UHGV virus genome: UHGV-0125821
Length of the DNA: 64,000 nt
Source: a virus
Strand: one strand, 5' to 3'
Within the stretch, counting starts at the first letter, position 1, and each line of letters begins with the position of its first letter. The notes beneath the pieces are model-generated. The model had not been told where the DNA came from. It ran no database searches and saw nothing but the letters and a program-made list of their open reading frames with translations. The position numbers and the translations under genes were made by a program. This document shows, one piece after another, positions 35,654 to 46,372 of the stretch.

Positions 35654-35685
35654 GAAGCCCGCCTGGTTGAGCGGGCTTCTTTTCA
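35654..35685 (+). terminator. Rho-independent terminator between convergent genes
   Basis: GAAGCCCGC-CTGGTTGA-GCGGGCTTC followed by TTTTC. Confidence 0.7.
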
Positions 35686-36063
35686 AATATTGGAACCAAA
35701 TAATTCACGTAGTTTTTCCGCTACTGAAGATACGGGGATTTCTCCAGTTGCGGCCCCCACCGCAAGTTCCACCAGCACGGGAGAATCATATACCTGTATA
35801 CCGTTACGGCGTAGAAATAGCAGCGCACTGTTTAGCGCGGTACGCTTATTGGCATCATTGAATATATGCCCTCTCGCCGTAGCCACCAGGTAGGTGGCGG
35901 AGACTTCGAAAAGGTCGGTGATCTCTTCGTAGGCAACTCTGGCCTGAACTCTCCCGATAATGGCCTCTGCCCTACCCGGATCTGACATTCCCGGCAGGCC
36001 GCCGTAGCGGCTTATATTCGCATCATGAAGCGCAATAAGTTCTTCCGGTGATATATGCCTCAT
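35683..36063 (-). CDS. doc: Doc toxin (Fic-fold kinase; death on curing)
   Basis: Near-identical over most of its length to P1 Doc as I recall it ([22 protein letters not shown]...[13 protein letters not shown]). Confidence 0.95.
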
Positions 36064-36290
36064 TATCGGTTAACCAGTTCCTTGTTGGTGGAGTCCAGGG
36101 TGTCAAACAGGGATGCAAATTCAGCATCCAGCGCCGCTTTTTTGTAGGCTTCAAAAGTAGCCTTGCTGACAATTACTGCTGGCTCTCGGCCTCTGCGGGT
36201 GATTTCAACCTCTTCCCCGGCTTCAACATTGTTGAGCACTTCAGAAAGGTTGCCGCGCGCGGTACGGAAGTTAATGGATTGCATAAACAC
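36063..36290 (-). CDS. phd: Phd antitoxin (prevents host death)
   Basis: [32 protein letters not shown]... matches P1 Phd; stop overlaps the doc start. Confidence 0.9.
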
Positions 36291-36949: not shown

Positions 36950-37339
36950 TCATATAGCAGGACTATCATCAAATTCACCGCCCCTGGCGTCATTGATAAT
37001 GTGGGTGATCACACCAAAAACAGCATTACTACCCGTGTAACCATCGTCATCTACTGGTAACGCCTCTTTCTTCCCGGTGCTTAAATCCTCCAGGTGCTGG
37101 CGCGGATACTTCCGGTATCTTTTTACGCGATATTCCCCCTCCATAGCGCATATAAGCAGTGAGCCATCAACCGGAGTAAGTGAGGAATCAACCACCAGCA
37201 AAGCACCTTGCAATATTCCCTCACGGTGATGGCTGTCTGCCGCCCGCATGAAGTAGGTCGCTGAAGGATGTCTGATTAGTTGCTGATCAAGAGAAATACG
37301 GCTCTCTGCATAATCCGCCGCAGGAGAAGGGAAGCCCAT
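36950..37339 (-). CDS. humD: UmuD-prime-like SOS mutagenesis protein homolog (HumD-like, S24 peptidase fold)
   Basis: GFPSPAADY...HPSATYF...LLVVD...GEYRVKR...VFGVITHII aligns with UmuD lacking its N-terminal arm. Confidence 0.8.
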   Translation of the reverse strand: MGFPSPAADYAESRISLDQQLIRHPSATYFMRAADSHHREGILQGALLVVDSSLTPVDGSLLICAMEGEYRVKRYRKYPRQHLEDLSTGKKEALPVDDDGYTGSNAVFGVITHIINDARGGEFDDSPAI

Positions 37340-37438: not shown

Positions 37439-37831
37439 TCACATTGGTGGCGTGAACTTGCCATTCATATATTGCAAAATGCTTGACTCAATTTTTTCAT
37501 TAAAATCAGAATGATGCTCCTCAAGGACAAAGCGCGCCTTATTGTTGCGCACAATAACCTCCGCCAACGGACTAACCAGAGATGTGGAGTTAGAGATTTT
37601 CTCGGCGCGCTCTACATCGCTTTTAAACGTTACGATGAAGTGCTGGTGGCCTGGTGACCGGCGACACAACATGCGTCGCACTTCCACGGTATCTTCACGG
37701 CCTTGAGTATGTACAGGAAAGCTATCGACCACCGCTGTATTGGTGCGGATTGTCTGCATAGAACGCGTGTTGTCGTGATAGTTAAGCATGTTTAATGTCT
37801 TCCCCATCTTGCCGTTATTTTCTTGGTGCAT
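37439..37831 (-). CDS. Hypothetical protein
   Basis: 130-aa ORF in the minus-strand operon. Confidence 0.4.
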
Positions 37832-38066
37832 CCTCGTTCTGATACACCGGATGGCTCCCTTTTGGCAACTGGAGGCTTAACTGCCGGTAGTGCCGTAACC
37901 GTTCCATGAAATAGGTGCGCAGGTTCTCTGGTTGCTCGCGGGCTACCTGTTCAGCCATGACAGGTATGTTCAATCGCTCTTTGTACGCCACACCGCTGGC
38001 AGCCAGATCAACGTTAACCTTATCCCGTTCTTCCTGACTTTTAGCTGCAATATTCCAGTCGCTCAT
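37815..38066 (-). CDS. Hypothetical protein
   Basis: 83-aa ORF. Confidence 0.4.
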
Positions 38067-43292: not shown

Positions 43293-43985
43293 TCAGACTT
43301 TAAGCTGCCCTCCCTTCACCTGCATTAGCGTCAGATTTCCACAAAAAACCGCGCCCGTGTCTATGTAGTGCTGATTCCAGTATGCTTTTGGTCTTCGTAC
43401 CGGTGTGTGCCCAAAGATAAAGCGATCTGCGCCTGTGATTTCTCCACCAATGCCATCTATCGAATCACCGACGCGACTGCGCGACCAGACAACATCAAAA
43501 AGCGATACATCCTTACCGAACTGGTACTCTCCACCTGGATAGTCGGCATGGGCTATAACGATAGTTTCATGTCCGGTGTTCAACTCAATGATATATGGCA
43601 GACGCTTTACCAGCTCCACCAGCGCCTTGGCTAATATTTCCTGATCAGTGTCCAGCATGAAGAACCATTGTCCGCCATTCATTAGCCAGTTATTCACGTT
43701 GCCATCTGGACTTAACGCATCAAGCATCAACCGCTCATGGTTCCCCATTACTGCCCTGAACCAGGGCATCTGCAATAGTTCCAGACATTCGACATTTTCA
43801 GTACCGCGATCGATAAGGTCGCCAACCGATATCAGTAAATCCTGCGCCGGGTCAAAATCCACACGATGGAGTTCGGACATCAGTCTGGTGTAGCAACCAT
43901 GCAGATCACCAACTACCCATATGTTTCTGTAGCCAGAACCATCAATACGGCTATATAAATTCACTTCATGCATAGCTTGGATCAT
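43293..43985 (-). CDS. Ser/Thr protein phosphatase, lambda-PPase-like metallophosphoesterase
   Basis: Motifs VVGDLHG, GDLIDRG and GNHE; start at 43985 gives an ATGA overlap with the upstream stop. Confidence 0.85.
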
Positions 43986-44293
43986 GCGGCAACCTTCTCC
44001 CGCAGCCAGATACAAACTGGACCATCTTCAGTGTCATGAATAGAGCCAACAAACCAGCCTTCACCCTCTGGTCGCTCCGGTTCCCAGGCGGCAATATCGG
44101 GACCAGCTGCGTCCATATCAAAATCATCTTCATCCATACTGCGAATAGTCCACTGAAGATTATTTTCCTTCATCCAGGCGTCAAATTCCTCAGTGGAAAT
44201 ATATTCACGACCTGCGCAAAACTTCTCATACTCCGGATGTGTCCAGCAGCCATATTCATCACGTTCTACCGGCATTTCTTTAATTGTGTTCAC
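43982..44293 (-). CDS. Hypothetical acidic protein
   Basis: 103 aa. Confidence 0.45.
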
Positions 44294-44877: not shown

Positions 44878-45201
44878 TCATTTTCTTAAGTCCTCTTCCC
44901 GGATAACGTTGTTGCACGCATCCACACACTCGTCGCAGATGAAAACGTCTTCCCCGGCAATTAACTTTTTGACGGCGTGCTGTGGTTTATTGCAGAAGCT
45001 GCAATAAAGCGTTCGCCTGACTGATACGGATGGTGCGCCAGATGTCAGCCGCGCGATGTCGTTCTTGCGACGCAATATCACACGGCTGCACTCGACCAGC
45101 ATCTCCGGGGATATCTTCTCCTCCGTAGCGAGCGTTTCTAATCGTTCGAGTATGTGGAAGGCTTTTTCCTGGGTAATTGCAGAATGCGATGTGGTCATCA
45201 T
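44878..45201 (-). CDS. Small protein with ClpX-type N-terminal zinc-binding-domain-like C4 module
   Basis: [39 protein letters not shown] parallels the ClpX N-domain ([40 protein letters not shown]); no AAA+ module. Confidence 0.6.
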
Positions 45202-45866
45202 CTTTTCCCTTCAAAGTTCGGGCGCAGGCAGGATTGTCCTTTACGAAGCAGGGCTGCGAACCTGTCAGCCGCATCCGCGCAAGCAGAAGCAACGGAATCA
45301 AAAAATGGATCATCTCCGGTATCGCGCATCGTCAAAGCGAATGCCTCCAATCCCTGAGCCTGTATTTCAACAAGGTAAGCTTCAGATGTAGTGCTTTTCG
45401 CCTCGCCTAATTTGTTATGAGCTATGTTCGCTACACATGCGATGTCTATATCTGGATGATTAATTGGGAGATGGCTAAGAATTTCCTCAAGTGCTGCTTT
45501 TTTGTTTTGGCATTCCGCCACCAGCGCCCCGCAATTGCTTTCCAGCTCTGCAATACACTTTTTAGCGGCTTCCAGCTCAACACGCAGATTCTCAAGCGTT
45601 AGAGCCATCTCCACGTTCTCGTCCAGCAGTTCAATCACATCAGGATCGCTATCATCAACTACTGTTATGCGCGATTTTTTGTAATGCTCGTCAGCATAAG
45701 TTCGTCCAGTTTTGAAGCATCCGTCATCCTCCATGCCAGAACAGGCATAAACAACATGTGATCCAGATATGCGCTGCATTGACATTTCCTCGCCACAAAC
45801 AGAGCATTTAGGCGCTGGTTTCGGTGAAAAACGTTCACGTAACGTCTGATAATAAAGCTCGCTCAC
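45198..45866 (-). CDS. Paralog-family early protein (Cys-rich variant)
   Basis: N-terminus [13 protein letters not shown]; shares the conserved upstream junction. Confidence 0.5.
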
Positions 45867-46372
45867 TGGATGACTCCTTTACGAAGCTGTTCGGCGATAT
45901 CTTCGAGAACGCCATCAGAGAATGAGCGATCAAAATCGCCTTCCGGCGCATTAGCCATAAACTCAGTAGAGGTAAGAATCATCCGGGCAATATCCGCGGC
46001 GTTCTTCGCAGTATCATCAATAAAACCAGCTTTCCAGGCAGCCAGCATTCTGTTCGCCACAAAGTAAGCGCCCTCCTTGCGTGCTTCAGTCTTCACTTCA
46101 TCCAGGAAAGTGTCGGTCGCAGGAGTAGTTTTTTGTGGTGATAGGGCGATACGAATTGTTTCAAGAGCTGGATCTATTTCCACTGTTGGCACCTTGATAA
46201 AACCAAGCTGCACGCCATTCATAATGAACGTGCGGCGATCCTCACATATCGCCTTCAGTCTCGCATTCTCCGCAGCCAGCGCCGCGCGCTCTTTCTCAAG
46301 TCGGGAAATTTCCGTTACATACTCAGCGTTACGCTCTGCCAGTTGTGCGGGCGTTAAACCTTCAGACTTCAT
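45863..46372 (-). CDS. Paralog-family early protein (coiled-coil)
   Basis: C-terminus [11 protein letters not shown] and the shared junction. Confidence 0.5.
   Translation of the reverse strand: MKSEGLTPAQLAERNAEYVTEISRLEKERAALAAENARLKAICEDRRTFIMNGVQLGFIKVPTVEIDPALETIRIALSPQKTTPATDTFLDEVKTEARKEGAYFVANRMLAAWKAGFIDDTAKNAADIARMILTSTEFMANAPEGDFDRSFSDGVLEDIAEQLRKGVIQ

Follow-up and report, generated by a model that had tools for sequence, protein, structure and literature searches.

We identified, in a 64,000-nucleotide stretch of the virus genome UHGV-0125821 (hereafter the window), which belongs to a temperate phage-plasmid of E. coli, a minus-strand gene (44878..45201) encoding a protein of 107 amino acids (aa) whose C-terminal part is, as judged from its sequence, a true ClpX-type zinc-binding domain (ZBD) and a member of the Pfam family PF06689, although the protein itself is no ClpX. 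The ZBD is preceded by a helical N-terminal domain that is private to this protein family. We tentatively propose that such two-domain accessory proteins of temperate enterobacterial phages and phage-plasmids mimic the N-domain of ClpX in trans and would thereby withhold clients from ClpXP, a reading to which we give not quite an even chance.

The C4-type ZBD spans residues 65-103 (44893..45009, minus strand), with C67, C70, C89, and C92 as predicted zinc ligands, and it was recovered by Pfam, by a search of PDB sequences, and by Foldseek. The Pfam profile zf-C4_ClpX (PF06689) aligned to residues 66-102 over profile positions 2-39 of 39, with an E value of 1e-17 and 64.2 bits, where the gathering threshold is 27 bits. 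When PDB sequences were searched using phmmer, the ZBD of E. coli ClpX (2ds5, 1ovx) came out on top (E~1e-16, residues 63-103), and the next unrelated zinc proteins were found only at E>0.3. An alignment to ClpX N-domains, the check proposed with the original prediction for this gene, gave identity to E. coli ClpX at 29 of the 39 core residues (74%), with the cysteines spaced CxxC-18-CxxC. The AlphaFold2 model of the protein (mean pLDDT 82) contains strands at residues 80-82 and 87-89 and a helix at 90-106, so that the predicted ZBD has the beta-hairpin, C-terminal helix, and four cysteines of a treble clef, and Foldseek superposed this model on PDB 2DS5 with an rmsd of 0.7 A over 40 columns (70% identity). 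Among 30 family variants, the four zinc-ligand cysteines are invariant, as are C96, F69, G83, I88, and V93. As the match is far above chance and ClpX-specific, a generic zinc ribbon with a chance likeness to ClpX, which the original prediction had kept as an alternative, was ruled out by the Pfam and PDB scores, the 29/39 identity, and the superposition. A C-terminal ClpX ZBD with all four cysteines had therefore been correctly predicted. The accompanying statement that this domain is almost recapitulated holds for the cysteines and the fold, but about 10 of the 39 positions differ and the domain is not a faithful replica.

The AAA+ module of ClpX was tested for and is absent, and on this ground we do not regard the protein as a ClpX. 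The chain stops at residue 107, four residues past the ZBD, and the ClpX equivalogs (NCBIfam TIGR00382 / NF003745) scored 44-46 bits against cut-offs of 359-371, with only profile positions ~4-48 aligned; the predicted lack of an AAA+ module was thus borne out. The E. coli ClpX N-domain shares with the window ZBD the family, the fold (0.7 A), the C4 site, and most of the pocket residues, but in ClpX the ZBD is joined to the AAA+ ring and follows a short disordered N-terminus, whereas the window ZBD has no ring and carries its own helical domain. The identical protein WP_109157907.1 is labeled 'ClpX C4-type zinc finger protein' in RefSeq, older database records name it "carboxylate--amine ligase", which is a misnomer, and it matches PHROG 6797 (function unknown) over its full length (E=2e-55). 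This domain-level name and the PHROG are what was already known; what we say below on function is inferred from the sequence. No functional study of the gene and no paper on a standalone phage or plasmid ZBD were found in a literature search. The original prediction had known of no such phage-plasmid factor, which agrees with that search, but it had overlooked the helical N-terminal domain, the RefSeq name, and the fact that P2-like chromosomal prophages carry the gene as well.

The differences between the phage ZBD and that of ClpX were examined against genuine ClpX sequences. A GTDB host-range scan using the family alignment was flooded by genuine clpX genes, its single apparent full-length match (L060) being clpP-clpX, and it was retained solely as a sample of ClpX ZBD sequences, comprising clpX genes of Caulobacterales, Rhizobium, Sphingomonas, Pseudomonas, and Vibrio, plus E. 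coli. Genuine ClpX ZBDs in this sample vary at 4 of 39 positions (S/T32, Y/F34, D/E41, and N/M44), and 12 distinct gammaproteobacterial ClpX N-termini contain 6 variable positions, mainly singletons. The clpX genes in which this near-invariant core was seen are those of L072, L079, L103, L104, L078, L115, L120, L102, and L080. As the core is almost frozen from alpha- to gammaproteobacteria, the ~10 phage substitutions are conspicuous. It should be noted that the positions of substitutions are numbered here without Met1 (as in G18 to I47), while the ClpX pocket residues (L12, L13, F17, and so on) are numbered with Met1. The phage family departs from ClpX at G18 (N/K), S20 (P), E23 (A/T), R25 (K), P31 (D/E), S32 (D/A/G/N), Y34 (F), L42 (V/A/D), D45 (R/S/N/E), and I46 (V); seven of these sites (G18, E23, R25, P31, L42, D45, and I46) are unchanging in the sampled ClpX N-termini and clpX genes. 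The window ZBD itself is substituted relative to ClpX at G18, E23, R25, P31, S32, L42, and D45, of which S32 alone varies in the sampled ClpX. The zinc-ligand cysteines, F16, K19, G30, I35, V40, C43, N44, and I47 are kept by the family. For the client pocket, the window allele is identical to ClpX at 6 of 8 residues (L13, F17, H23, K27, I29, and A30), with I47 replaced by V and L12 by T; a minority of the family's alleles have other residues at H23, K27, and A30. The pattern is compatible with client binding, though no proof of it.

Several lines of published work give this pocket its meaning. Mutagenesis and NMR mapped L12, L13, H23, K27, I29, and A30 of ClpX as binding residues; L12S, L13A/D, and H23A impair the recognition of MqsA, strong shifts were observed for L13, K27, I29, and A30, and H23 is important for the SspB tail (PMC8808172). 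The F16/I46 pocket (numbered without Met1) is common to SspB, RssB, lambda O, and trigger factor (PMC7804408). On its own, ZBD(1-52) of E. coli ClpX is a stable protein with an affinity of 35-80 nM for SspB-tail (XB) peptides (PMC12373786), and UmuD', lambda O, MuA, FtsZ, and SspB are bound directly by the ClpX N-domain (PMC8808172). RexB, a product of the lambda prophage, protects lambda O, Phd, and MazE from turnover by Clp proteases (PMC11077077). We favor mimicry of the ClpX N-domain because most of the pocket residues are kept and an isolated ZBD is able to bind XB peptides, because the ClpX N-domain is where UmuD', lambda O, MuA, FtsZ, and SspB dock, because genes of the client class (phd-doc and HumD/UmuD-like) lie on the same elements and RexB offers a precedent, and because standalone ZBDs were captured independently and the gene is maintained, with omega <1 and invariant cysteines.

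According to this proposal, the protein would form a ZBD dimer, and the dimer would take up those peptide signals and tails of adaptors that otherwise dock on the ZBD of ClpX. Among the signals and tails known to dock there are that of SspB (XB), RssB, the tether of UmuD, initiators of the lambda O type, MuA, and unfolded antitoxins such as MqsA. Clients that depend on the N-domain would be bound and kept from ClpXP, while degradation through the pore only, as for ssrA tags without SspB, should not be affected. The family-specific N-terminal domain may supply oligomerization or a second, specific partner, and the substituted surface sites G18, E23, P31/S32, D41/L42, and D45/I46 may tune client capture. 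The likely beneficiaries would be the element's own Phd or HumD-type protein, or host regulators such as RpoS.

Three points weigh against this proposal. Some 10 of 39 ZBD positions differ from a near-frozen ClpX, L12T, L42A, and P31E included, and these substitutions may have altered or abolished the binding spectrum, as near-frozen positions are affected and L12S weakens the recognition of MqsA by ClpX (PMC8808172). No conserved partner gene was found beside the ZBD gene in its different contexts, so that no protected client is named. Moreover, a pure decoy would not be expected to need a strongly conserved N-terminal domain.

Conservation of this domain is indeed strong. The N-terminal region comprises residues 1-54 (45040..45201, minus strand), with predicted helices at residues 11-27, 32-44, and 46-53, and the conserved three-helix domain, which spans residues 10-54, was found only fused to the ZBD. 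An exhaustive phmmer search of residues 1-63 against 1.84 billion representatives gave 9 matches, 8 of which belong to the protein's own family: the ZBD is intact in four (P0009, P0024, P0159, and P0161) and disrupted by a frameshift in P0163, and the other three are truncated fragments (P0160, P0162, and P0164). The ninth match, a low-complexity repeat protein, was rejected as a relative. Thirteen residues of the domain (E12, K13, A14, E19, R20, E22, A25, E27, E28, R45, D48, L52, and S54) are invariant down to 49% identity (P88 type, P0159). Judged by these matches and invariant residues, the N-terminal half is a real conserved domain, private to the family of ZBD proteins, and every mechanism must therefore give it a role.

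Such a role is central to a different scheme, which we consider unlikely, in which the protein would re-target ClpXP: the ZBD would pair with the ClpX N-domain or dock otherwise, and the N-terminal domain would bring a specific protein for degradation or remodeling. The protein would then be a trans-acting adaptor and not an inhibitor, and its targets might be a repressor fragment, a defense protein, or a competitor's protein; this variant, too, seems improbable to us. The N-terminal domain is conserved like the ZBD, and its invariant charged surface pattern fits a specific partner. The buried residues expected in the dimer core are conserved (I35, V40, C43, and I47, and nearly so L27 and V33), but L42, which is probably near the interface, varies (A/V/D/L). 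The dimer formed by the ClpX ZBD is described as very stable and constitutive; this would make subunit exchange with a free ZBD unlikely, which speaks against re-targeting by pairing. It is through the C-terminal helices and hairpins that the ZBD dimerizes (PMC5890618), and prophage induction in S. aureus, which needs the ClpX-dependent removal of a repressor fragment (bioRxiv 10.1101/2022.09.18.507959), offers re-targeting a possible setting. The linker between the two domains, which the model predicts to be flexible, would resemble the tether geometry of adaptors. However, no candidate target came up.

The P88 branch of the family bears on whether ClpX is involved at all. In this branch the N-terminal domain is very diverged (dN ~0.5), yet the ZBD is the most ClpX-like of all (AGPSVY...VDLCN) and keeps the S32-Y34-D41-N44 combination of Enterobacterales and Vibrio, which suggests selection to stay ClpX-like. 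This argues against a function unrelated to ClpX, in which the ZBD would be kept as a dimeric treble-clef scaffold with another target, as in the anti-sigma factor CsfB. We regard such a function as having a low probability, and the same holds for the targets that it might have, a transcription or replication factor or another protein of the ea array in which the gene lies. The B. subtilis CsfB (Gin, PDB 5N7Y) has ~20% identity to the ZBD, uses another surface, and has sigma factors as targets; at ~20% identity, as compared with 74% to ClpX, the window protein did not qualify as a member of the CsfB/Gin anti-sigma factors. In addition, the residues of the ClpX client pocket are mostly, and specifically, retained. 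If the function did prove to be unrelated to ClpX, the family would be a case of re-use of a domain that is otherwise nearly frozen in evolution.

We also considered whether the gene is a non-functional remnant, that is, a captured 5' fragment of clpX that has no use and simply rides along in an accessory region prone to recombination. This region has a strongly mosaic structure, with swaps of the N-terminus and truncated fragments (P0027, P0030, P0160, and P0162-P0164). This did not seem to be the explanation, and we consider it very improbable, as members as distant as 49% identity, from three unrelated types of element, have an intact open reading frame (ORF), the four zinc-ligand cysteines and 13 residues of the N-terminal domain are invariant, omega is ~0.4-0.6, and the start appears to be translationally coupled. 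At the nucleotide level, the gene is only ~67% identical to E. coli clpX, with dS saturated, and clpX was not picked up when E. coli genomes were searched by blastn with the ZBD gene. These values rule out a recent capture from the host clpX; the capture is therefore old, and the gene has been maintained since.

The type of selection was examined as well. Substitutions at D45 comprise 7 non-synonymous and 0 synonymous changes, and G18, P31/S32, and D41/L42 are also hot. Pairwise dN/dS values of 1.2-1.7 were obtained for the ZBD in the closest pairs, but these rest on just 1-3 synonymous changes and were not accepted as evidence of positive selection on the ZBD. Tree-based parsimony gave an omega of ~0.57 for the ZBD and ~0.44 for the N-terminal domain, which is no significant difference (Fisher p=0.19). 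Given the few synonymous changes and this p value, we do not claim diversifying selection; what we observe is purifying selection with variable surface sites and recombination, not proven positive selection.

Recombination has occurred within the gene. The 10-residue linker (residues 55-64; 45010..45039, minus strand; pLDDT ~61) coincides with an intragenic breakpoint. Between the window and the P2-like L002, dS is 0.49 in the N-terminal domain and 0.047 in the ZBD, while between the window and L016 the N-terminal domain is identical and the ZBD has a dS of 0.32; the two halves have therefore recombined at the linker and have separate histories. A shuffling of ZBD alleles over N-terminal domains, together with the clustering of non-synonymous changes and the location of the gene in P2-like prophages, in a variable slot flanked by gpA and the portal gene, is the footprint that would be left by a conflict factor. 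In that case, mimicry of the docking domain of the host protease would serve anti-defense, by disarming systems that are triggered when ClpXP destroys a labile antitoxin, or the exclusion of competitors that need ClpX. The former would be akin to the role of T7 Gp4.5 against Lon, and the latter could act, for example, on the disassembly of the Mu transpososome. We think this doubtful, somewhat more so than re-targeting.

Full-length homologs of the ZBD protein were found in Escherichia, Salmonella, and Shigella only. They reside on three types of carriers, mostly among ead/Ea22-type genes. The first type consists of D6/P1-like phage-plasmids of 83-95 kb. The second comprises phage-plasmids and phages of ~106-113 kb (PhiR41_1, CMS-2020a, and an E. 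coli O104:H4 plasmid), in which the ZBD gene lies within an Eae/Ea22/EaA array and a UmuD-like gene is found 3.5 kb downstream (in PhiR41_1, in the same array). The third is formed by P2-like prophages of the P88 type, where a ParM/StbB partition pair immediately precedes the ZBD gene, in the interval from the replication gene A to the portal gene Q. In L002, L006, L009, and L012 (P2-like; P88), the ParM/StbB pair, the ZBD gene, and Ea22-like genes share this variable A-Q slot, which we take to be the place where P2 itself has tin and old. A DNA-level match was present in 221 of 5,426 complete E. coli genomes (~4%), at 128 chromosomal and 106 plasmid places, and about 100 phage-plasmids maintain the gene. 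A 169-aa ORF adjoins the gene both in the window (D6-like) and in the P2-like context, but these two ORFs are unrelated to each other, and the Ea22-like neighbors have only a coiled-coil segment in common across contexts. As the neighbors are not conserved, the ZBD gene moves as a single accessory cassette.

Standalone ZBDs are also encoded by other phages. In Pseudomonas phage phi1, a ZBD-only ORF of 65 aa (L140 1204-1401) immediately follows the gene for replication protein P. Caulobacter phage Cr30 also has a ZBD-only ORF (L139 1186-1425), which is unannotated, bears the alphaproteobacterial ClpX signature LCM, and runs across two annotated 'hypothetical' genes. The capture of a ClpX ZBD by phages is therefore recurrent. 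The members of PHROG 12435 'protease' (Pseudomonas phages phi1 and PP9W2, 65 aa) and the Cr30 ORF resemble the window protein in having a ClpX-type ZBD without the ATPase, but they have no three-helix N-terminal domain, are far more diverged (40-43% identity), and form separate families; proteins of the phi1, PP9W2, and Cr30 type probably stem from separate captures. Other arrangements were seen in metagenomic proteins: P0029, P0061, P0087, P0093, and P0099 (~100-140 aa) consist of two tandem ClpX-type ZBDs and nothing more, and in P0031 and P0035 the ZBD is followed by a C-terminal region that by eye resembles the helix-turn-helix (HTH) of sigma-70 region 4.

If it acts on ClpXP, the window protein would belong with the phage modulators of host AAA+ proteases, a placement that depends on experiment. 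Its proposed outcome is like that of lambda RexB, a temperate-phage product that stabilizes the Clp substrates lambda O, Phd, and MazE (PMC11077077), but RexB is a membrane protein, unrelated in sequence and structure, whereas the route proposed for the window protein would be mimicry of a docking domain. Phage-encoded modulators of ClpXP are a small group so far, and how RexB, its classic member, works is not established. PinA of phage T4 and Gp4.5 of phage T7 inhibit Lon. These inhibitors are akin in function class, but the window protein would instead copy the docking domain of the protease. The anti-adaptors IraD, IraM, and IraP and the adaptor SspB act at the control point at which the window protein would act as well, where clients are handed to ClpXP by way of the N-domain. 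The partner of the Ira proteins is RssB and that of SspB is ClpX, whereas the window protein, which has no homology to them, would imitate the surface that ClpX contributes to the contact; an XB-type tail was not recognized in its sequence.

ClpXP governs the turnover of replication initiators (lambda O), the transposition of Mu, the stability of the antitoxins Phd and MqsA, the SOS mutagenesis proteins UmuD/D', and the level of RpoS, all of which are relevant to temperate elements. If the proposed competitive mimicry holds true, it would be a simple and transferable mechanism, it might explain how phage-plasmids with phd-doc and HumD tune the stability of their own proteins, and the protein would be a natural reagent to part N-domain-dependent from pore-dependent ClpXP pathways. 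As ~4% of the complete E. coli genomes have the gene, pathogen lineages among them, any influence on RpoS, on the SOS response, or on toxin-antitoxin systems would matter in practice.

The gene itself is present as originally predicted, as a 107-aa ORF on the minus strand from ATG 45201 to a stop codon at 44878-44880, according to the ORF list and the sequence. Its first two codons are both ATG, and PGAP and the majority of homologs begin at the second (45198), giving a protein of 106 aa that starts with MTTSH. The translation-initiation region (45196..45212, minus strand), read from the sequence and the ORF coordinates, contains the motif ATGATGA, in which the TGA (45198-45200) of the upstream Ead/Ea22-like ORF overlaps the first ATG of the ZBD gene, and a Shine-Dalgarno-like GAAGGG (45207-45212) lies 5-8 nt 5' of the start. 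No convincing internal promoter, and no sigma-70-like promoter directly upstream, was found. The stop/start overlap, the lack of a promoter directly upstream, and the co-directional array point to co-transcription and translational coupling of the ZBD gene with the Ead/Ea22-like gene at 45198-45866.

This array consists of ~17 minus-strand genes running from ~47.3 kb down to ~39.2 kb, in the order DUF4406, an HTH protein, a 169-aa ORF, the Ead/Ea22-like gene, the ZBD gene, DUF4752, and two small ORFs, followed by a lambda-type phosphatase, DUF968, and further Ead/Ea22-like genes. The upstream ORF (45198-45866) matches the Ead_Ea22 profile (PF13935) with an E value of 1.8e-12, while the ZBD protein has no match to this profile. 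The 222-aa product of this minus-strand ORF also has an N-terminal four-cysteine motif (C21-x2-C24 ... C42 ... C50) that resembles a small zinc ribbon. The first ~17 residues (MKSEGLTPAQLAERNAE) of the 169-aa ORF (45863-46372, minus strand) recur in other phage-plasmids as an in-frame fusion with the main part of the ZBD protein, as in the variants P0006, P0009, P0018, L030, L036, and L038. These in-frame fusions of MKSEGLTPAQLAERNAE indicate that genes of the ea array recombine at their 5' ends, with deletion of the intervening genes. None of the PADLOC-DB defense models matched the ZBD protein or seven neighbors (E<=0.01).

The 2-kb region around the ZBD gene is 100% identical to the E. coli plasmid ptetA (NZ_CP047013.1, 93.4 kb, non-mobilizable), which encodes WP_109157907.1, and shares 96% identity with phage D6, which is related to P1. 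The remainder of ptetA is of the P1 type, with phd-doc-pdcA, a HumD-like S24 peptidase, HOT/theta, a lytic replication protein, Dar-type genes, and Ref, but phage P1 has no homolog of the ZBD protein. In the window, doc (35683-36063) and phd (36063-36290) form a P1-type addiction pair and are accompanied by a gene for a HumD-like (UmuD'-type) S24 peptidase (36950-37339) and by HOT/theta, a homolog of the Pol III theta subunit (37815-38066), all on the minus strand and at a distance of 7-9 kb from the ZBD gene. As Phd and UmuD' are textbook clients of ClpXP, their proximity to the ZBD gene may or may not be coincidental. Within the array, the lambda-type Ser/Thr metallophosphatase (PF00149; 43293-44015, minus strand) has an uncertain start, with 240 aa from a TTG codon as compared with 230 aa according to PGAP. 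Finally, a 103-aa ORF of the same operon (43982-44293, minus strand) ends in ...LREKVAA-COOH, which recalls the ssrA tag (…LAA) read by the ClpX pore, and by this C-terminus its product is a possible ClpXP substrate.
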